In this document: positions 4,796 to 64,000 of the stretch, in pieces | Layout: every line of letters starts with the position of its first letter | Numbering within the stretch: position 1 is the first letter of the stretch | From: Octopus sinensis | Lineage: Eukaryota | Length of the DNA stretch: 64,000 bases | Direction of reading: 5' to 3' | NCBI RefSeq assembly: GCF_006345805.1 | Contig: NC_043006.1 | Coordinates: forward strand, 79,794,001-79,858,000 | Position numbers and translations under genes: made by a program | The notes under the pieces: model-generated | Database searches by the model: none | What the model was told of the DNA's origin: nothing | The model's input: the letters and a program-made list of their open reading frames with translations, nothing else

Positions 4796-4828
<33 letters not shown>

Positions 4829-7590: not shown

Positions 7591-7640
<50 letters not shown>

Positions 7641-8278: not shown

Positions 8279-8409
8279 CTATAAATGAAAGTGTAGATAG
8301 GCAATGAATTATGCATGCATGCATGTATGTATGTATGTATGTATGTATGTATGTATGTATGTATGTATGTATGTATGTATGTATGTATGTATGTATGTAT
8401 GTATGTATT

Positions 8410-8810
8410 CCAGAAGGAAAGGGTCTTCCTTTGATTCTGACATGCAATGTCTGTGCAAGACCCTGCCTCAGTAAAGCTGGACTCATGAGTCATCTTCGGA
8501 GTCATAAAACGAGACAGATGAGTGACAACCTGGCCACTGGTGGTGGTGTAACACACTATACTGATCATATCTGTCGGGCATGTGGAAGAGAGTGTAATTC
8601 GGCAGGAGGACTTAAACGACATGCAAAGGTACATGAAGCCCAGTTATGACTACAGCCGGCTATTACCAGTAAAGGTTTTAGTTGCCAATTTTGTACAAGA
8701 CATTGTAGATATTTAGCTGGGCTAAAAAGTCACATTCGATCACAGCACCAGGAACAGTTAAGCTTCGTGCAATGGCCATACTCGATAACGAGGAGGCAGC
8801 CATAATCATA
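8410..8810 (+). mobile_element. RTE-type LINE 3' end with three C2H2-like fingers, inside an (ATGT)n tract in an ANKAR intron
   Basis: CNVC..CLSKAGLMSHLRSH, CRAC..CNSAGGLKRH, and in frame past a [25 protein letters not shown]-like tail CATACTCGATAACGAGG. Confidence 0.6.
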
Positions 8811-8909
8811 ATGTATGCATGCATGTATGCATGTATGTATGCATGTGTGTATGTATGTATGTATGTATGTATGTATGTATGTATGTATGTATGTATGTAT
8901 GTATGTATG

Positions 8910-8955
<46 letters not shown>

Positions 8956-28682: not shown

Positions 28683-28707
28683 ATATCTGTACATCATCTC
28701 CAAACCT

Positions 28708-28749
<42 letters not shown>

Positions 28750-29236
28750 GAGGCACCAGAAATTAGTACGATTAGTACGGTATTATCCATAGAATTTCAA
28801 AATAAGGTGATTAGAATCAAAATACGCAACAAGGATATCCAGTACGATCGTTTCACGCAACTCCATTTAATTGAACAATGCAACCATTACATCAATTTAA
28901 ATGCAGAGCACAAAGACATAGAATTTAATTAAATTAAAACAGATGGTCACATTAGTATAATTTTACCTAAAATCTCCAAGAGGTTAAGGAGATAGACAAA
29001 GAACATGGTACCTTCACTTCTATTTAGAAGCTTCTATTAGAGTTCAAATTCCTCCAAGGTCGACTTGGCCTTTCATCCTTTCAGGGTAGATAAAATAAGT
29101 ACAAGCTGAGAACTGGGGTCGAAGTAATCAACACAGCTCCACCTCCGAAATTACTGGCCTCCTGCCAAAGTTTGAAACCGATATTTGAATTTAGAGCTTA
29201 GGTAAGCGGAACAAAAAGATCGTAAGGCATTCTGTC

Positions 29237-29302
<66 letters not shown>

Positions 29303-29640
29303 TGTTTATTCGTACGTGTACATATGTAAATTTATTCTTTTATAAATCTAAATGCAAACGATTACTCTTAAATCATTTTAATCGCAGCTTTATCTGCTAT
29401 TAGTTTAATAGCAACGACCTTCTCTGCATGTGACATCAAAACTATCTTACCCAGTCTTGAGTGTCGCCTTGACAACGCAGCAAACTTGAGTCAGTATAAG
29501 AGCGTCTATGATAGTGGTGGGGCAATTTTTTTTATTTCCGTAGCGAGGAACCATTTTTGTTACAGAGTGAATTTCAAGTGGATAATAAACATGCAAAAAA
29601 AAAAAAATATGTGCTGAGTAAATATTTCTTACAGATTCAT

Positions 29641-29830
29641 AGGTGCAGGTGGTGGCTGTGTGATAAGTAGTTTGCTTACCAAGCACATTGTTCCGGGTTC
29701 AGTCCCACTAGATGGCACCTTGTGCAAGTGTCTTCTACTATAGCCTCAGACCGACCAAAACCTTGTGAGCGGATTTGGTAGACGGAAACTGAAAGAAGCC
29801 CGTCGTATTTATACATATACCTATACCTAC

Positions 29831-29898
<68 letters not shown>

Positions 29899-30129
29899 AT
29901 GTGCGTGTGCGTGCGTGCGCGTGTGTATGTTTGTGCGTTTGTGTTTTCCCCCCACCATCGCTTGACAACCGATGCTGGTGTGTTTACGTCCCTGTAAGAT
30001 AGCATTTCGTCAAATGAGACCGATAAAATAAGTACTAGGCTTACAAGGAATAAGTCCTGGTGTCGATTTGTTCCGCTAAAGGTGGTGCTCCAGCATGGCT
30101 GCACTCAAATGACTGAAAAAAAAAGAATA
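29641..30129 (+). mobile_element. SINE family B, full length
   Basis: Colinear with 10595-11083. Confidence 0.85.
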
Positions 30130-30319
30130 GGTAGAACATGGTATAATGGTATCTTACTTAAAACTTAAACCGTTATTTTCTCGTGTGAGGGTTTTGGAGA
30201 TTTCGTCAGCTCGTGATATCAAATTTAAAATGCGAACGAAGTTTTTTCCGCATGTGAACTTACTCCATTACTTCAGTTTTCTAGAAGAATGTGTCAAATC
30301 TCTCACAATTCAGGAAGTA

Positions 30320-30646
30320 GATCGATCGGGACCCCCTTCAGTCACGACACTGACCATGGGATTGCACCTAGAAAGTTACCCTCCTAGTCACAAGTCTGGG
30401 CAAGGTGGTTTATGGAAGACCAGCAGTCGCCCATGCATACCGGCCTCCCCTCTCCACGCCACCAGTGTTATCTAAGGGAAAGGCAGCAGCCGATACAGCT
30501 TGGCACCCGTGACGTCGCAACTCATTTCTACAGCTGAGTTAATTGGAGCAATGTGAAATAAAGTGTCTTGCTCAAGAACACAACACGAACTCACAACCTC
30601 ACGATCGTAAGCTCGACGTTCTAACCACTGAGCCACGCGCCTTCAC
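30320..30646 (-). mobile_element. SINE family C
   Basis: TSD ATTCAGGAAGTA; inverted sibling at 31369-31702. Confidence 0.85.

Positions 30647-35650: not shown

Positions 35651-35655
<5 letters not shown>
35440..35655 (-). mobile_element. R4/Dong-type ORF C-terminus and 3' UTR, different subfamily
   Basis: IQKIALLGTAHILRRTL* followed by a UTR and (TAA)n. Confidence 0.7.
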
Positions 35656-38193
<2,538 letters not shown>

Positions 38194-39518: not shown

Positions 39519-41438
39519 ATGAAGTGGGTTTCATTTATCCTCTACTTTTTTATAAATGCTAATTTATGTTTGCAAAGTAAGTATTATGATGCAACATCAG
39601 TTTCTTGCTCAGAATGGGAGCTATATCACAAATGTTCGTGTCAACCTGAATGTCACTTGTTTAAGAATTGTTGTTTAGACCTAGCTAATCGTAATGTTTC
39701 TCATAGTCAAAATATTTCTGCACAAAGTTGTACGAAACTGAAAATTGGATATTACATTGCCCTTGACAAATGCCTTCCTAGTTACCCTATTAAAGAATAT
39801 GTGAGCAGATGTGAAAATTCTGTTGATGAAGATTATATCTTGAAAGTACCAGCTTTCGGGAAAGTAGACAAAAGATTGTACAAGAACTTATTCTGTGCTT
39901 TGTGCAACGATCAAGAATACATCTTGGGCAAATCGATTTATGAATGCGATGTGAATGATATTACATATCAGCAACTTTCAAGGTACCTTTCAAATGGTAC
40001 ATGTACCTTTTATTCATTTGATGTCCCAGATATTACATTTATTAATAATCTACATGAATGCTTATACGATATTTCGAATTGTTCTATAAAAGAGCGACAT
40101 GAAAATAGATCGGAGTTATGTGAAACAAATTCTATTTCACTGGCATCTTCAAATAAGTACCGACACTGTGCTTTATGCAGTGCCTTAAACACTACATATT
40201 TTAATTCAGGTCGCAAAACGGTTGAAAGAACCTATCCATTGACTATAATATTCGACCACAGCAGTAATATATTACAATACATAAATGCTATTCAAGAGAG
40301 TGTCGACACGAATAGAAGCGCAGGAAGGCATGAAACAATTCTCTGTAACAGTGATTTATTATTTGATGTTTATCAAAACCAGTGTCGTTCAGTTTTCTTC
40401 TATTCACTCATGAATTGTATTGCAGTGAGACTAAGTGATGATGAATATTACCTCAATGATGAAGGTCTGCTTTATTTGAATAAAACTCAACGACTACTGA
40501 ACAGAACAGAATTCAGCCAGGACACTCAAGGCATAAGTATCTGCATAGATAAGGACTTCGGTGCAATATCAAAATATGCTATATCTGAGAGTTATATTAC
40601 ATTTATAGGTCTTACTATTTCTGTTCCTGCTCTACTAATAACAATTGTAACTTATCTCTGTATACCTGAACTACGTACTTTACCAGGTAAATTCGTAATC
40701 AGTCTTCTGTCATCGCTGTTGTTGGCAGAGGTTTTGTTTCTTATTTCTAGATATGTACCTCCGTATACTATTCAATGTATTTTAACAGCTGTTTTGATGC
40801 ATTATTCTTTCTTAGCATCGTTCTTCTGGATGAATGTCATATCGTTTGATGCCTGCTGCACTTTCTCAGGATTCATGCAATTTCATATTTCTAATCAGGG
40901 TAATAAAAAACTTTTACCGTATTCTATATATGCATGGATCAGTCCACTTATAATTGTAACTATGTCACTCCTACTTGAGTATATACCAGAAAACAAAGCA
41001 ATTTCGCCAGCATATGGCAAGGGTATATGTTGGATTACAAATGGAAAGTGTTTATTATTGGTGTTTGGAATTCCAGTGATAATACTGTTAATACTTAATA
41101 TTTTAGCCTTTATTTTTATTTCAAGAGGCCTCCGTTTAGAAATGAAGCGTTCTGCAAAATATTTAATAAGTTACCATAATATTCACTTCCAAATTTTCTT
41201 CAAGCTCAGTCTTGTTATGGGTTTAACATGGATCTTGGGATTCCTGTATACATTCACAAAAATCAGTGAATTTTCTCTCCTTTTCTGTATCTGTAATTCA
41301 TTTTTGGGATTATTTGTTTGTTTTTCTTTTCTTTCCACAAGAATAATAGCTAAAAAATGCCTGCAGTTTGGGAATTTCTCGAACATTTCTACTTTTTACT
41401 GTACATCACCATCAGCATCTGAAAAAAATATCCAATAA
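39519..41438 (+). CDS. Methuselah-like (class B type) 7TM GPCR, single coding exon, 639 aa, SMB-like/Cys-rich ectodomain (G1)
   Basis: Signal peptide; CSCQPECHLFKNCC (somatomedin-B-like); YKNLFCALCN; 7TM motifs LRTLPGK, HYSFLASFFWMNVISFD, YAWISP, PAYGKGICWI, KLSLVMGLTWILG. No GPS motif seen. Confidence 0.9.
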   Translation: MKWVSFILYFFINANLCLQSKYYDATSVSCSEWELYHKCSCQPECHLFKNCCLDLANRNVSHSQNISAQSCTKLKIGYYIALDKCLPSYPIKEYVSRCENSVDEDYILKVPAFGKVDKRLYKNLFCALCNDQEYILGKSIYECDVNDITYQQLSRYLSNGTCTFYSFDVPDITFINNLHECLYDISNCSIKERHENRSELCETNSISLASSNKYRHCALCSALNTTYFNSGRKTVERTYPLTIIFDHSSNILQYINAIQESVDTNRSAGRHETILCNSDLLFDVYQNQCRSVFFYSLMNCIAVRLSDDEYYLNDEGLLYLNKTQRLLNRTEFSQDTQGISICIDKDFGAISKYAISESYITFIGLTISVPALLITIVTYLCIPELRTLPGKFVISLLSSLLLAEVLFLISRYVPPYTIQCILTAVLMHYSFLASFFWMNVISFDACCTFSGFMQFHISNQGNKKLLPYSIYAWISPLIIVTMSLLLEYIPENKAISPAYGKGICWITNGKCLLLVFGIPVIILLILNILAFIFISRGLRLEMKRSAKYLISYHNIHFQIFFKLSLVMGLTWILGFLYTFTKISEFSLLFCICNSFLGLFVCFSFLSTRIIAKKCLQFGNFSNISTFYCTSPSASEKNIQ

Positions 41439-44420: not shown

Positions 44421-45382
44421 AATTCAAATAATATATAGATTTGTTGTCTTTCTCACTATAATATTTGTACACCCCCGCTAACCCCTAGCTCCACTAATAT
44501 TATTGTAACTTACCTTAAATGTGATACAATTATCTCTGCACTGTTTTACAAAGTCAACACTAAAAATAGTTTATATTTATATAACTAAAGTACTATTTAT
44601 TCTTTCATCCAGGAATACCCTATTATATTCTTTTAAATGAGAAAAGCGTTCCATATATTCACTTGGAAATATAAATATCTTTCAAATTTAAGCATTCATT
44701 TATTTAATTCATTATTTAATTATATAATCATTTTATCATCTCCCTCTCTAGAATCAATTTTTTTTATCTCTCCAATTAGATTGCTTGTACATACCCCTAT
44801 AATCACTTACTCCAATATTAATAACAACCCCCTAACTTTTACCTAACTAATAAACTACCAACATTAATATACTCCAAGGGCACTGATATTGTGTCTAAAG
44901 CCAGCTAGAGACGACAATCTCTTGGGGCTATAAAGCTACAGTAACACCCACTCCCCAATGTGGTTAGCCATGATAAGATGGCTTCTATACTTTACATTAT
45001 CGAGCGATTACTGTTTCAATCTCATTCTGAGATTTAATTATGGTTAATATCTAATTCTATTACAATCTTATTACACACAAGTCTTAACATAATATTATAA
45101 TAATTAATTCTACTGTTTAGCATATTGTACACACAATAAATATTTTTCTACCAATATCTTACCATATACATTTGCTAACTTTTATATCAGTTATCCACTA
45201 TTACAGCATTGAATAGCTACACTTGATAATATTTGTATCTTTCATTTTCCACATAACCATTTCATTAACTATACTGATAAATCTTTAACTGCAAATTAAC
45301 ACATGATATGCATTCACATTATATTTATATATAATCTGTATATATTCAATTTTCCATCATATGTATATATATATATATATAT

Positions 45383-45630
45383 ATATAATATAAATTAGAG
45401 AAAAAAAAAACACTATTATGCAATTCAAACAATGATAGACATAAACCAATTCATAAATAAAATATATTTTTATAAAACATAACTAGACCACAAAAAGTAT
45501 AGTTTTTGTGATCTAGTTATATGTTTTATAAAAATATACTTTATTTTTTATTTATGATTTGGTTTGTTTATGCCTATCATTGTTTGAATTGCATAATAGT
45601 GGTTATTTTCTCTCATTTATATATTATATA
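45383..45630. repeat. AT-rich imperfect palindrome, ~120-bp arms
   Basis: CACTATTATGCAATTCAAACAATGATAG.../...CTATCATTGTTTGAATTGCATAATAGTG. Confidence 0.8.
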
Positions 45631-45725
45631 TTTATATTGCGAAATTTGATTTAATACTAAATTGAATGTTCCCTGTAAGTTTGGAGTTATACTCCCTATT
45701 ATTATTATTATTTTTATTATTATTA

Positions 45726-48139: not shown

Positions 48140-50447
48140 GATTTGCGTGTTCCAGTCCCAGTTATTTGTGTATAAAGTGTTCCCATTATTATGAAACACC
48201 TTAAGGTGATCTGGCAGAATCGTTAGTACGCCGGACAAAATGTTTAGAAGCATTTTTTCGAGTTCAAATTCCGTTGAGGTCGACTTTGTCTTTCATGCTT
48301 ACGGAGTCTATAAATAAGTACCAGTTAACTGCTGGGTTCGATGTAATCAACTAGCTCTACTTAACTCCAAATTTCAGGTCCCGTGTCTATGGTAGAAAAG
48401 TTTATTGAGACACCCTGCATAAAACTACAAATGAGCATGACATGAAAGGTAAGCAACCTCGTCATGTAATGTAATAAAACTTGCAGTTAATGGGACCGAA
48501 CATATAAAACAACTCTAATAATAAAAGCAGACATATTTAACAATACATGTAATATTGACTTCAAATTTTGGGACAAGGCAAACAAGTTCGGGAGAGGGGG
48601 TATGTCGATTATATCGACCTCAGTGCTCAACTGTCACTTATTTTATCAGCCCCAAAAAGACGAAAGGCAAAGTCGACCTCGGCGGAATATGAACTCAGAA
48701 CGTATAAACGGACGAAATGCCGCTAAGCATTTTGCTCGGAGTGCTAATGATTCTTCCAACTCGTCGCCTTAGGATACACATTAATAATCCCTTCTACTAT
48801 AGGCACAGGGCCTGATATTTGTAGGAGAAATTTGAGAGGAGGGATTAGTCGATTATATCGACCCCAGTACTCAGCTGGTACTTATTTTATCAACCCCGAA
48901 AGGATGAAAAGACAAAGTCGACCTCTGCGGAATCTGAACTCAGAATGCATAGTCGGACGAAATGCCGCTAAGCATTTTACCCGGAGTGCTAACGCTTCTT
49001 CCAGCTCGTCGTCTAAGGATACGCATTAATAATGATAATGTAGCGTAACTAATTGCATGAAGTATAATTCCATAAAATATAATATTTATATAATACAGTC
49101 TGCCATGAAATTTAAGCATTCAATGTAGGCGCTGAAGAATTAGAAATAGTAGTGTGATATAACACGTCAAGTAAGGTGCAAAGTTCTTTGATGTTGGAAG
49201 GAAAGAAAAGTAAGTAGTCATGCGAAAGTGACCCGCATGATATTGAGACATAATACATATAATTATTTAGAATAGTAGTAGTAATTAACGAATGGAATAT
49301 GATTGCTCATGATATCGAAGCAGTCATGAATTGTACAAATTCCCATCACGTAATTTATCATGCATCTAAACGTAACATATGCACAATGGGAACGTTTGAA
49401 ATAGGTTTAGTTTAGTTATAGTTTGAAAAATCATGGTTCAATACAAGACAGAAGATATTCTAAGTTAGTTCGTTCCCAAATGAAACCAATTTCTTAAATA
49501 GAGGATGTAAAACCCTATTGTTTTTTTTACTTCCCTCCTGTCAAATTTATTTTAAGCAGAATGTTTACAGAAAAGTTGGATATTCATCACGCATCGGCTA
49601 TTTTACTTTTCTCATTCTCATTTTCCAAACAAGAAAAATTTTGTCAATACACATGTTCAAAATTTGTCTTGCAAACATTGTAGTTTGACAACAACGAGGC
49701 AGTTGACTCCAGCAGTTCAGCTGTCTTTTATTTCATTTCAGTTCAAATTTACCTTGAGGACTCATACAAGAATATTGGACATTCCATTATGTACGTCAAG
49801 TTCACTGTACTCGTTCTGTCATGTTTCCTAGATAACAAAAATTCTTGGCGATGCAGACGACATTTAGTCTCACTGGATTCTGCTATAAGTATTACATGTG
49901 ATGTGAAAAGAATGGTTTCATGACAACAAGCCAATGCTTGAGAATGTACGTGTCAGCCACATAGATGAATTTTTCTGAACGAGATCTATGATAAAAGTGG
50001 TCGAAGATGTATTTATCCAGAACATGAAAAGTATTTGAAAAATTATAGATATTCAGCATTATCTAATTGTAGAAATGTTATTAATCCCCAAGAGAAGATC
50101 AAAGTACTGAAGTCGATTTAAAAATCGTTGACAATAGATACATTCTAAAAAAGCTTGATGGAGAGGGTGACAATCTGAGATTGGTGAAATTGTGTAGTGA
50201 GAGGAAACTCTGCTTCAGTTTCTAATGCGAAAGCTCGTTGAGGGATATCAGAAATGTCATCACAATCTGCATTTTATTATAATTCTTAACGTTTATATCA
50301 TTATCATAAACGTAAAGAATTCTGAAATACAATGCAGTAAGTGGTGTCTGAGACTTTTACGGAGTAGTTTATAGAATCTATTATTACAATAGGTTGTGTA
50401 CTGTGATAGAATGTCTGATGTTTAGAGTATTCCTGGAGAAATTCCAA

Positions 50448-52406
50448 TTAATTTAGTGACGTTTCATGTTGAATATTGGTCGAGATTGTTTCAGTAATCG
50501 TCGAGAGATCAGCGTTTGAGGAATCGATATATTTTCGTATTTTAAGAAACATATGTTGAAAACTGCGGCAGACGATCTTTGTTAAGAGAAATGACAAAGA
50601 AATGAGTAAACCGACGAAAGAGTTTAAGATGCAAAATAGTAGAGAAAATTCGTCAATCTTCGTAAACGCATAAAGGAATCCGAATATCCACGTTAAACCC
50701 ATGATGAAGCTTAATTTTATGTAAATGAAGAACACCTTCTTGTTTCGTTTTGATAAATATTTTGAAGAAAGTTTGCAGGCCAAATATAATTCTCTAATAG
50801 TGATGCTATACGCGATAATATTGAGGCATAATATAATGATAACGGGGATTGCCATGAACCAGAGCAAACTGTTTACATTTGTAATCCAGCAATTACCAAT
50901 TCCATATTCTGGAGAAAGTCCATGATTTCCAGGTGTGTACTCGAATATTAGTGACACTGTTACTATTAGAAGTGGACAGATCCAAGCATATAAGCAATAT
51001 AATACAAGTTTCTTGGTATCATTTTCTGATCTCCGGAATTGTGTAAGCCTTGAGAAAGTGTGCCAGGCATCAAAAGACATGACATTCATCCAGAAGAAAG
51101 TCGCTAAAAATGCATAATGCATGACAACAGCTAAAGATTTACACAGCACTGTAGATGTAGTAATTTGTGATGAGATAAGAAACAGAAGCTCAGCTACAAA
51201 CAGTGCTGATGAAAGACTAATGAGCAATTTACCTGGTAAGGTACGGAGATCAGGTATACAGAGATAGACTATAATAGTGATTGCTAGAGCTGGGACAGAG
51301 ATTGCTAGTCCTACTAATGTGGTATAGCTCTCAATTTCGGAATATTTTGATATTCCATTGTTATCATTCTTTACACAGATACTTAAACCATCTTCATCAA
51401 TACTGAATTCTGATTGATTGAGCCAAAGTTGGGTAATATTTAAATAGAGAAAACCATCACTAGTGATATGATGTTCAGAGTCCTTCAATCTGGTCGCTGT
51501 ACAATTTAAGATGGGGTGATAAAAATTCTTGCGACAACGCATTGTGTTTTTATCGTAATTGGTATATTTTGGACAGAATGGCAATTTCGTTTCAATTACA
51601 GTACCGTCTTTCACTTCTTTAATGATTAAATATTTGGCATTATAATTAAAAATGATAGTTAAGGAAGGTAAGCTTGTAAAACCAAAATCATTGTTGTTAG
51701 TATTATTGCAACATATAATGCCTTGATCAGTATAGATATTATCTAATGTACATTGGGCCTTTCCTCTAAGGTTCTTACTTGCTAAATTTTGACAGTGATG
51801 TTCCAATGTTTCATTTAATATAAGAGGCGAGCATTTACGAACACTTGGAATGCAAGGAACCAGATACGGCTTTAAATTATCAGGAGGAGCGTTCTGCTTG
51901 GGACATTTACCATTTTCAATAATATTCATTATATTGGCAGGGTTTTTATTTACTGTATTATCGCAGTCATAAACTATCTCCCATAATATATATTTTTCCG
52001 AGTGGCACAGAGCACAATATCGGTTCCTGTAGAGTCTTTTACTTGTTTCACCGAACACAGGCATATTGTCCGGGCTATTGTTGTTTGTAGGATATTCACA
52101 TCCGCTCACATGACTTATATCACTGTGATTTGATGGACAGTGATCAAAGATATAATATGTTTTGTCCTGAACAAGGCTGCAACTATAATATATTGATGGA
52201 TCGAAATATTCGGACTCAACAGTTTTCCGTTGATCTTCATTACAGCAGCATCTATTATATATATGACAGTGTTGTGAAATAGAGCAAAATTCACAATCCG
52301 TCGTACGTAAACAATTTAGGACAGAATTTGATGTTGGAATGATATTATTCATAAATATAGTGATAAGAAATAAAGTAGAAAAGTAATATTTTAAGATGAT
52401 TTCCAT
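50448..52406 (-). CDS. Methuselah-like 7TM GPCR, 652 aa from the first ATG (G2)
   Basis: Intact ORF, MEIILK start at 52406 followed by a hydrophobic signal segment. Same ectodomain and 7TM motifs as G1. AATAAA at 50273-50278. Confidence 0.9.
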   Translation of the reverse strand: MEIILKYYFSTLFLITIFMNNIIPTSNSVLNCLRTTDCEFCSISQHCHIYNRCCCNEDQRKTVESEYFDPSIYYSCSLVQDKTYYIFDHCPSNHSDISHVSGCEYPTNNNSPDNMPVFGETSKRLYRNRYCALCHSEKYILWEIVYDCDNTVNKNPANIMNIIENGKCPKQNAPPDNLKPYLVPCIPSVRKCSPLILNETLEHHCQNLASKNLRGKAQCTLDNIYTDQGIICCNNTNNNDFGFTSLPSLTIIFNYNAKYLIIKEVKDGTVIETKLPFCPKYTNYDKNTMRCRKNFYHPILNCTATRLKDSEHHITSDGFLYLNITQLWLNQSEFSIDEDGLSICVKNDNNGISKYSEIESYTTLVGLAISVPALAITIIVYLCIPDLRTLPGKLLISLSSALFVAELLFLISSQITTSTVLCKSLAVVMHYAFLATFFWMNVMSFDAWHTFSRLTQFRRSENDTKKLVLYCLYAWICPLLIVTVSLIFEYTPGNHGLSPEYGIGNCWITNVNSLLWFMAIPVIIILCLNIIAYSITIRELYLACKLSSKYLSKRNKKVFFIYIKLSFIMGLTWIFGFLYAFTKIDEFSLLFCILNSFVGLLISLSFLLTKIVCRSFQHMFLKIRKYIDSSNADLSTITETISTNIQHETSLN

Positions 52407-52619
52407 TCGGAACTGAAAATGTTGAATCAGCAAGCTTGAAGAAATCCAGGATTTATACTGATATCAATTTGTTGATGAATTTTACTACAATGGAGTAATT
52501 TGAATAGATCAAAATTGAAAATGCTTCCAATGTATTTATGTCTTTGAATATAAGCAAACAAGAATGAGCTATAGCTTAAAGGTAAGTTGTTTTGGGTTAT
52601 AGAGTTTTCGTAGTTATAC

Positions 52620-52645
52620 CTGGAAAAGAAGAAATAAAGATATTT
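52620..52645 (-). promoter_or_regulatory. Conserved 3' splice acceptor upstream of the G2 CDS (counterparts at 58474 for G3 and 61044 for G4)
   Basis: tctttatttcttcttttccag| in G2 and G3, catttcttctattgcag| in G4; each about 215 nt before the ATG. Confidence 0.6.
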
Positions 52646-53663
52646 ACTAATAGTATTCAATAATGAAACGATGCAAGGAAATGCTTATGACAATTTGATA
52701 CTATTATTTCCTTACATTTTGAACTCTTATTATTTTGTAATACTTTTATTTGTTTCAGCCATCAGAGTGCAACTCTACTGGGACACGGCCCTGAAGGGTT
52801 TAATGGAACAAATCGATCACAGTAATGTTTCTATATTTGGTACTTTTCCTATCGGCATCTTACTGATGAAACTCTAAGTCGCGAGGACTAAAAGAAACTA
52901 ATAGCAAATGTGAAACTGTGTTGGAACAAAAGAAACACGGGCACCTGCAGCCACCCAAACACCCATACTGAGACATAGTGTCCTTGAGAAAATTTTCTTA
53001 TAATAGGAGAAGAAATGTTACTATTGACGTAATATAATCAGATTTGTAATGTGACGCATCTTGCAATTTCACCAGTACACAAAATATAACAAGCCATTTA
53101 TCGTATCTAGTGGTGTATTGAAAGAAGGCAGTTAAATTGAATAATACAACATATATCATTTAAGTAGTTATAACCGGTTATATAATATATGATGTGATGT
53201 GAGCAGTCATGTGATATACGCACTGTTTCTGTATATATTTCAAATAAAGCAACCTTGAGTGTCATATTTGGAAAACAGCACAAAACACAGAGGTCGCAGA
53301 AAAAATTTCCATGAGAACCAAATTCGTTTTCTACAGTTTTTGTGTAATAAATGAAAATGTATTGTTCACCGCCTCTACACGAAATGTTTCAGAGAGAAGA
53401 AATGATTAATGCGAACGTCTGAAATTTGTTTTGTAAATATGTAGTTTGAAAACATCGTAGTTAAATATAATACAAGATCACTTGAAACTATTAATGTCTC
53501 GAACAAAGACACAGAATCCCTCTCAGACACAGAGGAACATCTCCGTTGCCTTCTTTTATTTCCTTTTAAAAATCGTTGACAAAAGATATATGTAGAAAAG
53601 GCCCGCTGGAGTAGATGAGAAACTGAGATTGACGGAACTGTGTTTCAATTCCTAATATGAAAG

Positions 53664-53804
53664 CCAGGCATTAAGTGACATGACATTCACTCAGAAGAAA
53701 GTAGCTAAGAACGAATAATGCATCATAATAGCTAAAGATTTACACAGCACTGTAAATGTAGTGACTTGCGATGAAATAAGAAAGAGAAGCTCAGCTAAAA
53801 ACAG
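53664..53804 (-). pseudogene. Relic of an additional GPCR paralogue (TM2-TM3 only)
   Basis: Translates LFLAELLFLISSQVTTFTVLCKSLAIMMHYSFLATFF*VNVMSLNAW (conserved W changed to TGA). It is fused to a G4-type 3' flank at 53568-53663. Confidence 0.85.
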
Positions 53805-54095
53805 GCGCACTTACTGGACGAAAACCAACCAACAGCAATTATGAAACTGTGTTGGAACAGATACAAACAGAGACACCTGCAGCTATCCACACACACTCAT
53901 AGCACTCATAGTGGGATATATGTCATGCTTTAGAAAGTTTTATTATAACAGGACATTAAATGTTACTATTCACGTATAATCAGATTGGTAATGTGATGCA
54001 TCTTTCAATGTCACCAGTAAGCAAAATATAACAAGCCATTTATTGTAACTAGTGGTGCCTTGAAAGAAGGCACGAAAATGGAATAATATAACATA

Positions 54096-55223
54096 CTAGC
54101 AAACACACCCGTCCCTTGGATGGTTTAAGCTGCTATGGTGGTATTTTTTTCATTAGATAATTGAACTAGCGAGAATGTTTATGAGTAGTACGGCAATCTA
54201 TGTTTCCGATTAACCTAGGAACGGAAAATCGAATTGCAGTCTGGTTATTGTGGAGGTCGTTGCACTTTAATAATCATAGAACATGAAAGTTTGAGAGCTA
54301 TGCAAAGCAGAGCTACTGAAGTGTTACGGGAGTAGATTACGAATAATGACAACCAAATATAGTTGTTTTACACGAAAGCGAAATTTGTTGTCATAAACAG
54401 CCACATAAATGGTGTAAGGGAATTGAAAGAAAACGGTGAAACTTCCCCTCTGCGAGTTTATTTTTTTCAACAGCAAAGTAGCTATTTTTTCGGAGAGATA
54501 AGTTGACAAAAGCCCCTTTATTCTGTTTTCCCGTATAGCCTGCGCATAATATAACAGCGAATGCTGTATAGAGTTAAATTGGTACGGAGTTTTCTGAAAG
54601 ATACGTATAGCTTTCGCTAGTGTAAGCAAAACTCTTATTTAAAGGTTGATTATTTGGGGATGAATCATAAGTAATTGTTTAAAAGAGGCTAAAATGACAA
54701 TGCTAAAGCATATTTGAAACAACGGACAATAGTCGAAATATCATAATGGATGGGCAAATAGGCACCCTTAAAGTGAAACAACGCATTGGTAGGTAAACAA
54801 ACGTCTCAACAAATAGAAGGGAGGCAAGGGAACATCATCTTTCAAGTAACTCAGAATAAGTAAAGGTAAGCTTGCCAAAGTTTAATGCAGTTTAACTATG
54901 GAGATTAAGATTGCTTGATATTGGATATTCATCGCTACAGTATTCCTAGTCAATTTAATCAACGTGGCAGGAGTACAGTCGAAATAAATAGACAAAATCC
55001 TTTCACTTCATAAAAAGATTAAAATGTATGGAAGATCCTACATACAAAAACTATGTCCATTTAGGTCTATTTACGCGGAAGCTCCGGGAAAAATGTTTAG
55101 TGCATGACCATCCTTGTGACATAAGCAACGTGTGTGTAAAGTTTGGTGAAAATCGGTTGAGAATTGTGGAAATGTATGCGTTAGTCATTATACACACATA
55201 TGCTGTGATTTATATATATCAGA
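54096..55223 (-). mobile_element. Non-autonomous Helitron
   Basis: 5'-TC...CTAG-3' termini, GC hairpin at 54109-54123 near the 3' end, inserted between A and T with no TSD. Removing it restores ACATATATCAT, seen uninterrupted in the paralogous block at 53149-53159. Confidence 0.85.
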
Positions 55224-56319
55224 TATCATCTAAATAAATACAACTAGTTATATAATATAAGACGTGATGTGAACATTCATGTCATATATATACTGTTCCT
55301 CTATATATTTATTACAAGTAACACGATCTTGGGGGACATATCTGAAAAGCTACAATCTGCAACACAAGAAACTTTGGGAACAGAATAACATTTCCATGTG
55401 TATCAAATTTCGATTTCTATAGTGTCTGTGAGAGAAGGGAAAATGTATTGCTCACAGAATGTTTCAGAGAGAACAAGTATTTAATGTGAATGCTTGAAAT
55501 ATGTTTTGTAAATATGTAGTTTGAAATCAAAATAGTTAAACATAATACAAGAGCAACTAAAACAACTTATGCCCGGAACAAAGACATGGAAACCAACCCT
55601 CTCAGACATAGAGGAACAACTTCGCAGCCTTCATTTATTTCCTTTCAAATTTACCTCGAGAAAGATTCTTGCAAAAATGTTGGATATTCCATTAGGTACG
55701 GCAAATTCACTCTACTCGTTCTGTCACTTTCTCTAGATAACAAAAGTCTTGCCGATGCAGACGACTTCCAGCTTCATTTTTTCTTCCTATATGTATTTCA
55801 TGTGATGTGAAGAGAATGGTTTCATGACGACAGACCACGGTTTGAGAATGTATCTGTTAGGGAAATTGGTGAATTCTATTCCGATCGAGATGTATGGTGA
55901 GAGTGAGGGTTAAGCATCCGAAAAATTATAGGAATTTAGTATTATCCAGTTGTGGAAATATTTATTAGTCCTTGAGAGAAAAAATAAAAATACTTAAGTC
56001 GGTTTAAAAATCATTGACCCTAGATATTATCGTAAACATTTGTGAAATTGTGTAGCCAGAGGAAACACTGTTTGAATTTCTAATATGAAAGCCCGTTGAA
56101 GGCTATGAGTAACGTCATCACAATTTTTATTTTATTATAAATCTTAACGTTTATGCATATCATTGTCTCATTATAAACGTAAAGAAGTGTGATATACAAT
56201 GCAGCAAGTGGTGCGACGTTAGAGTCTTTTACAATATAGTTTAAAGAATGCAGCCCTACTACAGGTTATATATTGTGGTAGAATGTATGTTGTTTAGAAT
56301 ATTTCCGGAGAAATATCAA

Positions 56320-58260
56320 TTATTGTAGTGATGTTTCATGTAGGTTATTTGTCGAGATTGTTTTAGGAATCATTGAAATATCAGAGTTTGAGAAATCGAC
56401 ATATTTTCGTATTTCAAGAGACATACGTTGAAAAGTTCGGCAGACGATCTTTGTTAAGAGAAATGACAAAGAAATGAGTAAACCGACAAAAGAGTTTAAA
56501 ATGCAAAATAGTAGAGAAAATTCGTCAATCTTCGTAAACGTATAAAGGAATCCGAGCATCCATGTTAAACCCATGATGAAGCTTAATTTTACGTAAATAA
56601 AGAACACTTTTTTGTTTCGTTTTGATAAATATTTTGAAGAACATTTGCTGGTCAGGTACAACTCTCTAATAGTGAAGCTGTACGCTATAATATTAATGCA
56701 TAAAATAATGATAACGGGGATTGCCAAGAACCAAAGCAAACTGTTCACGTTTGTAATCCAGCAAATACCAATTCCATATTCTGGAGAAAGTCCATGATTT
56801 CCAGGTGTGTACTCGAATATTAGTGACACTGTTACTATTAGCAGTGGACAGACCCAAGCATATAAGGAATATAATACAAGTTTCTTGGTATCATTTTCTG
56901 AACTCCGAAGTTGTGTAAGCCTTGAGAAAGTGTTCCAGGCATCAAATGACATGACATTCGTCCAGAAGAAAGTCGCTAAAAACGCATAATGCATGACAAC
57001 AGCTAAAGATTTACACAGCACTGTAGATGTAGTAATTTGTGATGAGATAAGAAACAGAAGCTCAGCTACAAACAGTGCTGATAAAAGACTAATGAGTAGT
57101 TTACCTGGTAAGGTACGGAGATCAGGTATACAGAGATAGACTATAATAGTGATTGCTAGAGCTGGGACAGAGATTGCTAGTCCTACTAATGTGATATAGC
57201 TCTCAATTTCGGAATATTTTGATATTCCATTGTTATCATTCTTTACACAGATACTTAAACCATCTTCATCAATACTGAATTCTGATTGATTGAGCCAAAG
57301 TTGGGTAATATTTAAATAGAGAAGACCATCACTAGTGATATGATATTCAGAGTCCTTCAATCTGGTCGCTGTACAATTTAAGATGGGGTGATAAAAATTC
57401 TTGCGACAACGCATTGTGTTTTTATCGTAATTGGTGTATTTTGGACAAAATGGCAATTTCGTTATAGTTCCAGTACCATCTTTAATGATTAAATATTTGG
57501 CATTATAATTAAAAATGATAGTTAACGAAGACCGTAGTTTAGCAGAACTCAAAGAATTATTGCAACATTTGATGTTGAGTTTAATATATTTCATTGACAA
57601 TGTACACTTTATCTCTGTAATATTATGTGTATATTTAGAAAGCTGACAGTGATGTCCTAATGATTTATTTAATATATGCAGCGAGCATTTAGTAACACTG
57701 GGTATGCAAGGGACTAGATAAGGTTCTAAATTATCAGGTGGAGCGTTCCGTTTGGGACATTTACCATTTTCAATAATATTCATTATATTGGCAGGGTTTT
57801 TATTTGCTGTATTATTGCAGTCATAAACTATCTCCCATAATATATATTTTTCCGAGTGGCACAGAGCACAATATCGGTTCCTGTAGAGTCTTTTACTTGT
57901 TTCACCGAACACAGGCATATTGTCCGGGCTATCGTTGTTTGTAGGATATTCACATCCGTTCACATGACTTATATCACTGTGATTTGATGGACAGCGATCA
58001 AAGATATAATATGTTTTGTTCTGAACAAGGCTGCAACTATAATATATTGATGGATCGAAATATTCGGACTCAACAGTTTTCCGTTGATCTTCATTACAGC
58101 AGCATCTATTATATATATGACAGTGTTGTGAAATAGAGCAAAATTCACAATCCGTCGTACGTAAACAATTTAGGACAGAATTTGATGTTGGAATGATATC
58201 ATTCATAAATATAGTGATAAGAAATAAAGTAGAAAAGTAATATTTTAAGATGATTTCCAT
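56320..58260 (-). CDS. Methuselah-like 7TM GPCR, 646 aa (G3)
   Basis: Intact ORF, close paralogue of G2 and G4. AATAAA at 56131-56136. Confidence 0.88.
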   Translation of the reverse strand: MEIILKYYFSTLFLITIFMNDIIPTSNSVLNCLRTTDCEFCSISQHCHIYNRCCCNEDQRKTVESEYFDPSIYYSCSLVQNKTYYIFDRCPSNHSDISHVNGCEYPTNNDSPDNMPVFGETSKRLYRNRYCALCHSEKYILWEIVYDCNNTANKNPANIMNIIENGKCPKRNAPPDNLEPYLVPCIPSVTKCSLHILNKSLGHHCQLSKYTHNITEIKCTLSMKYIKLNIKCCNNSLSSAKLRSSLTIIFNYNAKYLIIKDGTGTITKLPFCPKYTNYDKNTMRCRKNFYHPILNCTATRLKDSEYHITSDGLLYLNITQLWLNQSEFSIDEDGLSICVKNDNNGISKYSEIESYITLVGLAISVPALAITIIVYLCIPDLRTLPGKLLISLLSALFVAELLFLISSQITTSTVLCKSLAVVMHYAFLATFFWTNVMSFDAWNTFSRLTQLRSSENDTKKLVLYSLYAWVCPLLIVTVSLIFEYTPGNHGLSPEYGIGICWITNVNSLLWFLAIPVIIILCINIIAYSFTIRELYLTSKCSSKYLSKRNKKVFFIYVKLSFIMGLTWMLGFLYTFTKIDEFSLLFCILNSFVGLLISLSFLLTKIVCRTFQRMSLEIRKYVDFSNSDISMIPKTISTNNLHETSLQ

Positions 58261-58888
58261 TCGGAACTGAAAATGTTGAATCAGCAAGCTTGAAGAAATC
58301 CAGGATTTATACTGATATCAATTTGTTGATGAATTTTACTACAATGGAGTAATTTGAATAGATCAAAATTGAAAATGCTTCCAATGTATTTATGTCTTTG
58401 AATATAAGCAAACAAGAATGAGCTATAGCTTAAAGGTAAGTTGTTTTGGGTTATAGAGTTTTCGTAGTTATACCTGGAAAAGAAGAAATAAAGATATTTA
58501 CTAATAGTATTCAATAATGAAACGATGCAAGGAAATGCTCACGACAATTTGATAATATTATTTCTTTACGGTTAAAAGCTCGTTGACAATAAATATAATC
58601 ACAAAATGCCCGCTGGAGTAGATGAGAAGCTGAGATTGATGCAACTGTTTTTCAGTTTCTAATATGAAAGCCTGTTGAAGGATATCTGTGACGCCCTCAC
58701 AATCTGCATTTTATTATAATTCTTAACGTTTATATCATTATCATAAAAGTAAAGTAGTCTGATACAAAATGCAGCATGTGTTGTGATGTTACAGGCCTTA
58801 CAGTGTAGTTTATAGAATGCAGCGTTACTAAAGGTTGTGTACTGTGGTAGAATATCTGTTGTCTAGAAAATTTCCGGAGAAATTTCTA

Positions 58889-60826
58889 TTATTTTAGTGA
58901 TGTATCATGTTCGGTGTAGGTCGACATTGTTTCAGTAATCGTCGAAACATCGGCGTTTGAGAAATCGACATATTTTCGTATTTTAATAAACATATGTTGA
59001 AAACTGCGGCAGACGATCTTTCTTAAGAGAAATGACAAAGAAATGAGTAAACCAACGAAAGAGTTTAAGATGCAAAATAGTAGAGAAAATTCGTCAATCT
59101 TCGTAAACGTATAAAGGAATCCGAGCATCCATGTTAAACCCATGATGAAGCTTAATTTTATGTAAATGAAGAACACCTTCTTGTTTCGTTTTGATAAATA
59201 TTTTGAAGAAAGTTTGCTGAACAAATACAACTCTCTGATAGTGATACTGTACGCTATAATATTCAAACATAAAATAATGATAACAGGGATTGCTAAGAAC
59301 CACAATAAACTGTTCACGTTTGTAATCCAGCAAATACCAATTCCATATTCTGGAGAAAATCCACGATTTCCAGGTGTGTACTCAAATATCAGTGACACTG
59401 TTACTATTAGAAGTGGACAGATCCAAGCATATAAGGAATATAATACAAGTTTCTTGGTATCATTTTCTGAACTCCGAAGTTGTGTAAGCCTTGAGAAAGT
59501 GTTCCAGGCATCAAATGACATGACATTCGTCCAGAAGAATGTCGCTAAAAACGCATAATGCATTACAACAGCTGAAGATTTACACAGCACTGTGGATGTA
59601 GTGACTTGTGATGAGATAAGAAAGAGAAGCTCAGCTACAAACAGTGCCGATGAAAGACTAATGAGTAGTTTACCTGGTAAGGTACGGAGATCAGGTATAC
59701 AGAGATAGACTATAATAGTGATTGCCAGAGCTGGGACAGAGATTGCTAGTCCCACTAATGTGATATAGGTTTCAATTTCGGAATATTTTGATATTTCATT
59801 GTTATCATTCTTTACACAGATACTTAAACCATCTTCATCAATACTGAATTCTGATTGATTGAGCCAAAGTTGGGTAATATTTAAATATAGAAGACCATCA
59901 CTAGTAATATGATATTCAGAGGCTTTCAATCTGGTCGCTGTACAATTTAAGATGGGGTGATAAAAATTCTTGCGACAACGCATTGTGTTTTTATCGTAAT
60001 TGGTGTATTTTGGACAGAATGGCAATTTCGTTTCAATTTCAGTTCCGTCTATTTTTTCTTTAATAGTTAAATATTTGATATTATAATTAAAAATGATAGT
60101 TAATGGAAATCCCTTTCGACTCGATGATGTACTGGTTGATACACTGCAACATAAGATGTTTCGATCGGTATAATCATTAGACGACGTACATCGTGGCTTT
60201 TCTAAAGTTGGACATTGATGTTCCAATGTTTCATTTAATATTTGAGGCGAGCATTTACTAACACTGGAAATGCAAGGCATCAGATAAGGTTTTAAATTAT
60301 CCGGAGGAGCTTTGCGTTTGGAACATTTACCATTTTCAATCATATTCATTAAATCGGCACGATTTATATTTACTGTATTATCACAGTCATAAACAATATC
60401 CCATAATATATATTTCTCTGTGTGACACAGAGCACAATATCGGTTCATATAGAGTCTTTTACTTGTTTCACCGAACACAGGAATATTGTCTGGACTATCA
60501 TTGTTTTTAGGATATTCACATCTGGTCACATGACTTATATCACTGTGATTTGATGGACAGCGGTCAAAGATATAATATGTTTTGTCCTGAACAAGGCTGC
60601 AACTATAATATATTGATGGATCGAAATATTCGGACTCAACAGTTTTCCGTTGATCTTCATTACAACAGCATCTGTTGTACATATGACATTGCTTTGCAAA
60701 TGAGCAAAATTCACAATCCGTAGTATTGAAACATTTTAAGTTAGAGTTTGAAGTTAGAACGACGTGATTCATAAATGCAAGAATAAAAAATAAAATAGAA
60801 AAGTTATGATTGAAGACGATTTCCAT
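58889..60826 (-). CDS. Methuselah-like 7TM GPCR, 645 aa (G4)
   Basis: Intact ORF, MEIVFN start at 60826. AATAAA at 58710-58715. Confidence 0.9.
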   Translation of the reverse strand: MEIVFNHNFSILFFILAFMNHVVLTSNSNLKCFNTTDCEFCSFAKQCHMYNRCCCNEDQRKTVESEYFDPSIYYSCSLVQDKTYYIFDRCPSNHSDISHVTRCEYPKNNDSPDNIPVFGETSKRLYMNRYCALCHTEKYILWDIVYDCDNTVNINRADLMNMIENGKCSKRKAPPDNLKPYLMPCISSVSKCSPQILNETLEHQCPTLEKPRCTSSNDYTDRNILCCSVSTSTSSSRKGFPLTIIFNYNIKYLTIKEKIDGTEIETKLPFCPKYTNYDKNTMRCRKNFYHPILNCTATRLKASEYHITSDGLLYLNITQLWLNQSEFSIDEDGLSICVKNDNNEISKYSEIETYITLVGLAISVPALAITIIVYLCIPDLRTLPGKLLISLSSALFVAELLFLISSQVTTSTVLCKSSAVVMHYAFLATFFWTNVMSFDAWNTFSRLTQLRSSENDTKKLVLYSLYAWICPLLIVTVSLIFEYTPGNRGFSPEYGIGICWITNVNSLLWFLAIPVIIILCLNIIAYSITIRELYLFSKLSSKYLSKRNKKVFFIYIKLSFIMGLTWMLGFLYTFTKIDEFSLLFCILNSFVGLLISLSFLLRKIVCRSFQHMFIKIRKYVDFSNADVSTITETMSTYTEHDTSLK

Positions 60827-61362
60827 TTGAAACTGAAGATGTTGAAGCAGCAAGACTGAAGAAATTCAAGAGATATATTTGATATCTATTTGTTGATGAA
60901 TAGGTCAAAATTGAAAATGCTTCCAATACATTGAAGGCATAATAAGTCAGTTTTAAGTGTTTGAATGTAACCAAAATTCGGATCATAGAACAACGGTATG
61001 TTGACTTTGTATATGTATATATGCACTAGCTTTTGAAGTTGTACTGCAATAGAAGAAATGACGATATTTTACCCTCAGTAATTAGTAATGAATTTGCTTA
61101 AGCAAATGTGTATTACAATTTGGTGAGTGTAATATTTTTTTAAAGACATTTCATTAGTGTTTTTAAATTCATTTACTTGCATTAATCATTGCAATTCAGT
61201 CACTCTGGCGTACACCCTTGAACGGTTTTCTCTGTGTGTAACTAGTTATATTGTTCTTTTTTGACGAGTCGCCAATTTGTATGTAAACAAATCAACACAA
61301 GTTGTGAAATCGTGGAGGAGCAATCACACACGCACGTACGCACACACACACACATACACACA

Positions 61363-61402
<40 letters not shown>

Positions 61403-62169
61403 TATTCATATATTATACAGTATACATCTTGTGCTTTCACACAGTTTCCTCTTACCAATTTCAATCACACGGCAATCTTTGACCTGGAGTCACAGTGGGA
61501 GATGCTTGCCCGGCACTGGACCACGATCTTTATGGGTTCAAAGTGAATGTCTTAACTGCACAGCCGATTCTGCGCATATAGGAAAGGGTAACGAGTTTAA
61601 GTTATGATTTTATAAATGAGAACGACAGCTCGACGAACGTATCGCTGTCTGATTGTGTTGTTTAACGATTCAGAGGTAAATGTGGTTTATAGTCGATCTT
61701 ATCCAGTCTGCCTCACATCATTCAGTGAGATAGAAAGCCAATTCGGCGCAGGTGGGATTATGTAATAAGACGACAGAAAGTGAAGTTTAGTACAGAAAAG
61801 CGAGAAGATAGGAGTAAGAAGCGTGTAAATGAACCTACCTGCCTAAGAAACATTTGACGGTGCGTAACGCTGTAGACACCTCGATCTTCTTAAGCGTAAC
61901 GTCCCAGAGGAAATCTGGATTTTGCGCAATAGAAAAACATACGCCACCTTCACATTTCCTTTTCCGAGGACAATAGACTAAAGTACTAGTAAATTACTAG
62001 TTCTGTTAAATCTTTAATTCAATAATTCAATTGACACCTTCCTTATTAAATATATGTAGGGCCTCGTGCTTACGTCAGAAATCTTATTTGTTTATGATAT
62101 ATAAAGATATACACATGTATGTATGTATGTATGTATGTATGTATGTATGTATGTATGTATGTATGTATG

Positions 62170-62212
<43 letters not shown>

Positions 62213-62342
62213 ATATACAGACATACAGACATATATACATATATATATATGTATATACACATACATACATATATATGTATATGTACATAATACATATATA
62301 TATATGTATATATATATAAACATACATACATACATATATATG

Positions 62343-62397
<55 letters not shown>

Positions 62398-62969
62398 AAC
62401 ACATATATATAGGTATATATATATATATGCATATAGAGTAGATTAGATAGGGAGAATGCTTTTGATATAGCAATGGGGTCATCTGACTCTGTACAGGTAA
62501 CAGACCTCCCTAATAGGTCTGTTACCTGAATGACCATAGGTAACAGACCTACCTATATCCTTTCAGTAATCCAGTATTTATTTCCGGAAGTAACAGGGTC
62601 TATATAGGAATGACGCATTATTTTTTCTGGACAGGAGTAGTAAAGTACTACTACAAAGGCATAGAAAATCTCTTTAGATTAAAAAAAAATTAGGATGAAA
62701 CATTACTATGGGAAAGGATTATCGTAGAATAAATTTTTTGACGCTACCTTCTGTCTTGATACTAGATTATTTGAACCATTTCATAAGTCAAGTGATCGTA
62801 TTAAATACATAAATGTAGCATTCAACCATCCTTTCTCAATAATAGGTGATTAGTTAAGAGTATTTCTACAAGAATTTCTAGATTATCCGCTAACAATAAA
62901 ATTTCCGAATCACATGCAACTTATTATAATGTTGCTTTAGATAGGGCTGGGTAATGTTCATCTGTAATT

Positions 62970-63290
62970 GACCTAATGGTGGCTCTGTTGCCTCGTTGCG
63001 CCTTCGCCACTCGAGCCTCTCGGGCGGCTCCAACTCTTTCGTTCCTCAGAGCTCGCATTTAGAGCTTACCACCATCTGTTGTTGACGATGGCACCCGTCA
63101 ATGCTCTCTTAACTAATGTGCTAATCCGGTCCCTGTAAGCCTGGCGTGCCGTGAACGACGCGTTCAGCTTCCAGTAACCGGGACTCTGCCTATGTGTCTT
63201 ATTTAAGTCAAGTGTACAAGTCACAAATTTGTGGTCTGTGTAGCTGACTATATGGAATTGTGGACAACCTACACTATCCTTTTTCACTGT
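62970..63290 (-). mobile_element. Tx1/L1-type LINE fragment (end of APE endonuclease)
   Basis: TDHKFV...SPGYWKLNAS motif. Confidence 0.65.
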
Positions 63291-63292
63291 CC

Positions 63293-63337
<45 letters not shown>

Positions 63338-63352
63338 GGGTAGGTAGGTAGG

Positions 63353-63422
<70 letters not shown>

Positions 63423-64000
63423 TGCATATATATGGTGAATGAAAGGCGGAAGGTAGAATATATGAAAATTTATTATTAATTTTAATTATTTCGAAACATT
63501 TAGCATCGCTCCCTCACGGGTGAGACACTTAACAACTGTTACCCAGCGGTGCAGATGTATTTCGTCGGGTGATAAATAGACACAACTCGTTAAAATAACA
63601 GTCCCACAATGTATCTTCTCATTTCGTAGAAAGAAAAGCAGCAAAACGAAGGAAATATCTTCATTTACATAGAAGATCAAAAATAAAATCACAGATGCAA
63701 AAAATGAAACGAACACGCAATACAGCGAGGAAAATATTAAAAATAATCGTTAACAAATATGGATGTATAAACGCCCTTGCGCAAGCTGCATGGCGCGTGT
63801 ACATTCGTTCATACAAGCATCCGCAGACATATAAGCATACACACACGTATGGTTTGGTGCACTCACGATAAGAAAGCTAGTTAAATAGCTGCTTGGTGTT
63901 TATAAGAATGGGGAGGTTAAAACTAAGCTTAATTTAGCCGTACCTTAAAGTAAGTTATGTTAACAGTTACTCAAATTCATTCCCACTGCATTGAGCGAAA

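Follow-up and report, generated by a model that had tools for sequence, protein, structure and literature searches.

How can a receptor gene be expressed when its 3' splice acceptor lies about 235 nt behind the poly(A) signal of the gene in front of it? The question is raised by G3, one of the four long single-exon open reading frames (ORFs; G1 on the plus strand, G2, G3 and G4 on the minus strand) in a 64,000-nt window of the Octopus sinensis genome (2.72 Gb; NC_043006.1, 79794001-79858000, forward strand). The reading we favour, at roughly even confidence, is that G3, and probably also G2, may be made by splicing of a shared upstream leader, the genes then constituting alternative terminal exons. 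It is carried by the anatomy of the minus-strand copies, by a duplicated unit whose start lies within about 350 nt upstream of the acceptor, and by spacers without a donor of the family type.

Receptors built as complete terminal exons

The predicted proteins identify the genes G4, G3 and G2, all of them intact, as octopus Methuselah-like class-B G-protein-coupled receptors (GPCRs), corresponding to group 4 of PMC6408891. Pfam 7tm_2 is present and GPS absent in all four ORFs; in G2, G3 and G4 the secretin-family seven-transmembrane (7TM) domain PF00002 is matched at E values of 5e-30 to 2e-28, the homologues carry the name Mth-like, and the GPS motif of adhesion GPCRs (group 3) gave no family match at E<=0.1. 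G4 is 87% identical to O. bimaculoides A0A0L8GFC5 and G2 85% identical to A0A0L8GFJ7 (XP_052826751), both listed as group 4 in Table S2 of that study, and a quick tree (30 rows, broken copies excluded) unites the three receptors and these two orthologues in one clade with support 100. The same family and cluster are described in PMC6408891, where the G4 and G2 orthologues are the last two plus-strand genes of Scaffold69694 and, according to its tables, are expressed only in sucker and skin. In O. sinensis, the window forms the left end of a cluster of about 0.75 Mb with several dozen paralogues and fragments on both strands, whose members are named here by their kilobase position in the window extended rightwards (a90, a121 and so on).

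Each of the three products has its own acceptor, complete coding sequence (CDS) and poly(A) signal: the acceptor lies 213, 213 and 217 nt before the ATG and the AATAAA 170, 184 and 174 nt after the stop in G2, G3 and G4, respectively. All acceptors and poly(A) signals located by the initial annotation are where it had placed them (Table 1). Its description of the acceptors as strong applies to G2 and G3, which take ranks 1-2 of the 183 YAG sites scored at 49-64 kb, whereas the G4 acceptor is moderate and ties with at least 14 other sites. Every ORF runs through to a stop and an AATAAA of its own, unlike protocadherin-, UGT1- or Gr39a-type loci, in which variable 5' exons are spliced onto common 3' coding exons. 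G2, G3 and a fourth-paralogue remnant retain another AATAAA about 0.7 kb past the stop; the G4 flank breaks off before this position. A gradient of acceptor strength, weak first and strong later, fits G4 versus G3 and G2, but fails in other compact pairs and was discarded. Two details of the G4 5' end stand apart: in the X7 and X8 DNA contigs, an additional base at 61043 would give the exon a start like those of G2 and G3 and possibly marks a small assembly error (one base missing at the G4 exon start), and the G4 part of the 5' untranslated region (5'UTR; 60827-61043) contains three upstream ATGs, those of G2 and G3 none.

Such a cassette is the terminal exon of the family behind a 5'UTR intron, and ordinary by itself. 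A terminal exon behind a 5'UTR intron is the usual layout of intronless GPCRs. Within the cluster, an acceptor with at least 15/19 pyrimidines is found within 450 nt of the ATG in 20 of 31 paralogues, as compared with 19% of random windows, and the same 5'UTR-intron layout is described for olfactory receptors (PMC7055050). Since the acceptor is family-wide and sister genes carry upstream blocks of their own, the cassette layout alone says nothing on receptor choice.

Spacers, leaders and transcripts

In a sister subclade, a conserved promoter-like block is located upstream of a90, a121, a343, a360 and a377, and three more copies bring the total to eight. Most copies contain a TATA-like word; the block also brings a short exon, at least five copies end in a GT donor, and its distance 5' of each gene is 4-12 kb. 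The four measured donors score 8-9/9 and the two measured introns span 4.1 and 11.5 kb. This architecture of block, exon and donor implies that the acceptors of the family need an upstream exon. In another subclade, duplication on both strands took along 10-15 kb of the DNA upstream. Separately, three block copies (contig ~80131000, 80185500 and 80187200; L058, L063-L064) have no same-strand receptor close behind; two of them form a divergent pair, and one is situated past the inverted gene a326, a close paralogue of a121, which has its block upstream. The arrangement of a326 suggests a local inversion of its CDS away from its putative promoter.

For G3, G4 3' flank and 95 nt of intron end of the G2 type fill the whole 415 nt from the G4 stop to the acceptor, and this stretch, with its gap of about 235 nt, contains neither a donor of at least 7/9 nor a TATA-like word. 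The width of this gap and the meeting of G4-type 3' flank with G2-type 5' flank, between 58570 and 58569, agree with the initial annotation, which had placed the joint at a TATTTC(C/T)TT microhomology. The latter is not borne out, as this word lies wholly on the G2-type side and about 1 nt is shared in comparison with the undeleted G2 and G3 3' flanks; a similar word is also present in the flank of the remnant and in the distal flank of G3, making a longer microhomology possible, though not needed. The 96-nt intron that had been considered finds weak donors, ACC/GTAAAG (5/9) and AAT/GTAAGG (7/9), and the corresponding position in G4 lacks a GT.

The 3.7-kb spacer between G3 and G2 comprises, in order, G3 3' flank, a high-copy repeat, one copy of a two-copy block (dupA), the remnant with its flank, the other dupA and an old repeat, and is accounted for by duplicated 3' flank, repeats, dupA and the gene remnant. 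It holds five 7/9 donors and five TATA-like words. dupA is found neither downstream of G2 nor upstream of G4, and therefore cannot be assigned as promoter or flank by position alone. Above the acceptor, G2 is homologous to the G4 upstream for only about 350 nt (209/300 aligned bases); beyond this, none of the eight G4 upstream pieces scored above shuffles in the G2 spacer, and comparison of the G4 upstream with six other upstream regions gave only short pieces at one query end. With the homology ending about 350 nt above the acceptor, the apparent start of the duplicated unit lies within the intron.

Further instances of the compact layout are a459-a454, a446-a442 and six A-B doublets, and donors of at least 8/9 are absent from the five compact spacers examined (0/5; G4-G3, 415 nt; G3-G2, 3700; a446-a442, 1649; a459-a454, 2571; A-B, 1552). 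The 6.7-kb a454-a446 spacer has three. The A-B doublet, with about 1.75 kb from the A stop to the B ATG, is itself repeated six times with a period of about 30 kb (contig 80430000-80590000; L093-L108); several copies are frameshifted, and five units have a 44-nt 5'UTR remnant about 7 kb upstream of A.

Upstream of G4, the leader donor proposed in the initial annotation, at 61838, is the sole one of at least 8/9 in 61045-64000, yet the probability of meeting one in 3 kb by chance is P=0.53, and the proposal has no support beyond that level. The site lies inside a single-copy stretch of about 0.5 kb in which the CpG count peaks among the windows at 49-66 kb. The region 61926-62029 faintly resembles the a90 block (p=0.02), but as the best of 8 tests this is not significant.

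We propose that G4, G3 and G2 would be tandem copies of a terminal exon, each bringing acceptor, whole CDS and poly(A) signal, and that one promoter and non-coding leader would lie above G4, with 61838 as one candidate for its location. RNA polymerase II transcription would either end in cleavage at the G4 AATAAA or read on, and after read-through the leader would be spliced to the G3 or the G2 acceptor, giving monocistronic mRNAs. Cleavage at the upstream poly(A) signal may in this manner compete with splicing to the next acceptor, with one receptor per mRNA as the outcome. As for the history of the locus, a deletion probably shortened the 3' flank of G4, leaving about 320 nt of it and taking away the equivalent of the distal AATAAA but not the 95 nt needed for the G3 3' splice site, and recent conversion may have homogenised the 5' ends of G2 and G3.

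Annotations of related octopuses lend support, not proof, to leader sharing. In O. bimaculoides, Ocbimv22021290m (18935-43078, minus) encloses the single-exon same-strand paralogue Ocbimv22021291m (28498-30513; Table S2 of PMC6408891). The model spans about 24 kb, its protein maps to one cassette, and the spacing to the next gene matches that of the present genome (8.8 kb), which fits a CDS at its 3' end; most simply, Ocbimv22021290m would have a leader 12.6 kb above the first cassette and skip that cassette. Moreover, RefSeq presents the O. bimaculoides orthologues of a446 and a454 as isoforms X1 (XP_052826744-6) and X2 (XP_052826747), with consecutive accessions. The putative alternative terminal exon, one of the options of the initial annotation, gains indirect support from the missing donors in 5/5 spacers, from the nested model and from the isoform naming. 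Further points in favour of leader sharing are the adjacency of the intact G4 and G2 orthologues in O. bimaculoides, 2794 nt apart and alike in their sucker and skin expression, an intact G3 with a ratio of nonsynonymous to synonymous substitution rates (dN/dS) of 0.16-0.23 in the stalk and 7TM part, and the G3-matching contigs and the splice between paralogues described below.

Contigs of depth 2-8 from runs X1-X4, the RNA nature of which is presumed only and which may be DNA, include two that are specific to G3, one to G4 and several to G2. The first G3-specific contig has 0 differences to G3 versus 4 to G2 at diagnostic sites, and the second 1 difference to G3, where G2 differs by 23 mismatches and 18 gap positions. 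One X3 contig, at 50000-50183, extends past the G2 proximal AATAAA, a weak hint that this signal leaks. An X1 contig at 56816-57257 has a loose end and is only about 94% identical to G3, with 27 differences, mostly at 57151-57227; it would represent an unplaced further paralogue or conversion mosaic.

The three receptors also share an internal donor-like sequence after the first transmembrane segment (TM1; Table 1). In RefSeq isoform X3 of LOC115216264, the internal donor of a426 is joined to the 5'UTR acceptor of a405, 19 kb away (contig ~80219100 to 80200190), and the O. vulgaris model CAI9727585 ends with GITTKTL and a stop, read from G2/G3 acceptor sequence. Splicing of the TM1 donor to the acceptor of the next paralogue would yield a truncated, one-pass ectodomain isoform. 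As transcripts, models P0006, P0003, P0022 and P0040 look chimeric or like ab initio artefacts, and were not counted.

Table 1. Features of the window, with positions counted from its first letter.
Feature	Position	Strand	Remarks
G4 CDS	58889-60826	-	645 aa, 7tm_2; uninterrupted ORF; orthologue A0A0L8GFC5
G3 CDS	56320-58260	-	646 aa, 7tm_2; uninterrupted ORF
G2 CDS	50448-52406	-	652 aa, 7tm_2; uninterrupted ORF; orthologue XP_052826751/A0A0L8GFJ7
G4 3' splice acceptor	61044-61063	-	14/19 pyrimidines
G3 intron end and acceptor	58474-58569	-	about 95 nt, 17/19 pyrimidines
G2 intron end and acceptor	52620-52715	-	17/19 pyrimidines
G4 AATAAA	58710-58715	-	sole one remaining before G3
G3 proximal AATAAA	56131-56136	-	second at 55634-55639
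G2 proximal AATAAA	50273-50278	-	second at 49727-49732
Junction of G4-type 3' flank and G2-type intron end	58569-58570	-	putative deletion point; about 1 nt shared
G3 5' tract near-identical to G2	57830-58539	-	5 differences/710 nt; 0 synonymous in first 150 codons
Candidate leader donor CAG/GTAGGT	61833-61841	-	first intron base 61838; chance-level
Internal donor-like CCAG/GTAAA after TM1	57099-57107 (G3)	-	also 59673 (G4), 51232 (G2); used in models P0003, P0026
High-copy interspersed repeat	54100-55220		in G3 3' flank; DNA depth 800-15000 versus 4-60 beside
dupA (two-copy block)	53816-54095; 52885-53153	-	continuous with 3' flank
Fourth-paralogue remnant	53144-53804	-	140 nt of TM2-3 coding sequence with stops, and 3' flank; no acceptor
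Old dispersed repeat	52740-52960	-	ends about 120 nt before G2 acceptor; aligns upstream of G4
G1	39519-41438	+	divergent paralogue, 42% to G3; faces G2 and lacks a clear acceptor within 450 nt of its ATG
Exon-like ORFs at left edge	3896-10062	-	unrelated multi-exon gene
Broken reverse-transcriptase-like ORFs	27222-28273		presumably a retroelement, by look of sequence
Tandem repeat	35652-37790		units of about 450-590 nt
Palindromic element	45373-45637		265 nt; further copies elsewhere in cluster

Weighing the alternatives

Several observations weigh against leader sharing. The 17 records from X1-X4 contain no splice joints and cover no acceptor, a contig of X10 continues for 27 nt across the G2/G3 acceptor without splicing, and both G3-specific contigs come from a single study. 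The evidence from O. bimaculoides consists of annotation for a different subcluster and gives start and end coordinates only, the record does not show the locus id of isoform X1, and paralogue mis-mapping gives false chimeric models, P0006 being one, a hazard that PMC7055050 also warns of. Neither the vicinity of G2-G4 nor the distant part of the cluster matches the promoter profile derived from the sister subclade, which thus yields no leader near G2-G4. No listed DNA contig of X7, X8 or X9 spans the junction between G4 and G3. The donor absence is weak against background (2.5 expected, P0=0.08), and more telling against the expectation of a family-type donor per gene. Finally, the low dN/dS in the stalk and 7TM part of G3 is confounded by conversion, which reduces the ratio in a silent copy too.

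The alternative that survives best, albeit one we find unlikely, is that each gene has its own start, G3 using a cryptic promoter in the CDS or 3' end of G4 and G2 one in the spacer repeat or dupA, with a weak donor or no splicing. Indeed, separate genes with upstream blocks of their own, on either strand, make up most of the cluster, the 7/9 donors and TATA-like words of the G2 spacer would serve such starts, and the X10 contig is unspliced. In addition, the annotation gives the O. bimaculoides orthologue of a446 a 5' exon of its own, 659 nt behind the end of the upstream gene; nearby starts hence exist in the family, a further point to the detriment of leader sharing. This explanation is however at odds with the bare G3 gap, with family donors that measure 8-9/9 in all four cases, and with the lack of conservation of the 96-nt intron donor in G4.

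It is also rather unlikely, in our view, that G3 is a stranded copy, either present in untranslated read-through from G4 or near-silent, and intact through a young deletion and conversion with G2 and G4. Conversion speaks in its favour: beyond the near-identical 5' tract (Table 1), within which the exon starts agree fully over about 470 nt, G2 and G3 have 4 further differences in the outer 30 nt and 3' flanks that are about 78% alike, from which we infer an older junction and a recent conversion tract, and the G3 CDS is mosaic along its length. No G3 counterpart is annotated between the O. bimaculoides orthologues of G4 and G2; the broken remnant adjoins G3; and untranslated read-through is described in ants (PMC12393541). 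Yet the variable ectodomain of G3 has diverged, with about 62% identity to the O. bimaculoides G2 and G4 orthologues and a synonymous divergence (dS) of 0.46-0.52 versus G2 and G4, and it is still in frame with a dN/dS of 0.55-0.60. The strongest acceptor of the region is also retained, and other samples carry G3-specific DNA almost without change (X7, 1 difference in 286 nt; X9, 6 in 610). The initial annotation had likewise offered a silent but intact conversion donor; the conversion between G2 and G3 is real, whereas silence is made less credible by the low dN/dS of the stalk and 7TM part and by the G3-specific presumed-RNA contigs.

Alternatively, the gap of about 235 nt could be an assembly error or a rare deletion haplotype, G3 normally having a longer upstream, which we judge improbable. 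The missing span across 58570 in X7, X8 and X9 would fit, as would the empty bins 58320-58620 in X7 and X8, an X9 contig of the G4 flank that stops at 58579 with 5 unfitted letters, and frameshifted paralogues elsewhere in the assembly. However, holes in contig cover prove nothing, the junction offers no long repeat on which an assembly could collapse, 4 G3-specific differences sit in the outer 30 nt, and the same genome contains no alternative copy of the junction. An X9 contig at 58069-58575 was evaluated as a bridge and rejected, because its 9 differences are exactly those between G2 and G3, marking it as a G2 copy.

An operon with spliced-leader (SL) trans-splicing onto each acceptor, for which the short distance from poly(A) signal to acceptor would be reminiscent of nematode operons, is highly improbable given the cis donors of the sister genes. 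Molluscs are moreover among the phyla with only doubtful putative SL sequences according to PMC3795323, and no paper on SL trans-splicing in cephalopods was among the matches listed.

Related systems and implications of the proposed leader sharing

Sharing of promoters and 5'UTRs is already known from a few mammalian gene pairs, of which the octopus layout would be a variant. As in such shared-leader loci, each product has an acceptor, a complete CDS and a poly(A) signal; downstream units without a first exon of their own and junctions from one leader to several cassettes are predicted. Closest are olfactory receptor (OR) loci that share 5'UTR exons, such as OR51E2/OR51C1P, reported for 7 loci each in human and mouse (PMC7055050): these too are tandem GPCR paralogues, in which the downstream gene is made from an upstream 5'UTR exon, with chimeric read-through as well. 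The junctions there were established by reads and expressed sequence tags, whereas sharing in octopus is deduced; and OR51E2 only "contains transcripts" that splice across, in contrast to octopus G3, which appears to be without an alternative start (PMC7055050). CPNE1/RBM12 (PMC2568002) similarly has one promoter and a non-coding leader for separate coding regions, with competition between poly(A) and splicing proposed, but these are unrelated genes, as opposed to tandem paralogous receptors that would stem from duplication of a terminal exon. In ant odorant-receptor arrays (PMC12393541), transcription also runs through a tandem receptor array; the downstream transcripts are nuclear and untranslated and the receptors have their own promoters, while the downstream cassette in octopus would be translated. 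For the octopus cluster itself, no paper on shared leaders was among the matches listed; the main text of PMC6408891 (Figure 3 outside the scope) has 0 matches to "nested", "splic" or "UTR" and no discussion of a shared leader, although its Figure 3 and supplementary file 1 may bear on the point.

A further parallel concerns tandemly duplicated exons. Clustered protocadherins and UGT1 join variable 5' exons to constant 3' coding exons, like Gr39a. The Drosophila Gr39a-type loci resemble the octopus case in that tandemly duplicated large exons in one locus give several receptors, with variable 5' and constant 3' coding exons, whereas octopus would be the opposite, with a shared non-coding 5' part and a whole protein per cassette (PMC2204066). 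A more far-reaching form of leader sharing would be an inverted protocadherin layout, having a promoter and leader per subcluster, several whole-receptor terminal exons, at least three independent origins (G4-G3-G2, a459-a454-a446-a442 and the six A-B doublets) and a cell-specific choice of cassette, by regulated competition between poly(A) cleavage and splicing, among sucker and skin receptors. Taken as a whole, we regard this extension as doubtful, and only a slim prospect.

If leader sharing is wrong, the locus is an ordinary tandem GPCR array in which one copy has lost its promoter. If true, octopus-specific receptors of sucker and skin can multiply by duplication of the last exon alone and borrow the promoter of a neighbour. 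This would account for the common expression of group-4 genes that lie together, and would imply that genes and isoforms are confounded in present gene counts and models. With three diagnostic junctions within 12 kb, the locus represents a small, testable case for post-transcriptional receptor choice in the peripheral sensory cells of cephalopods.

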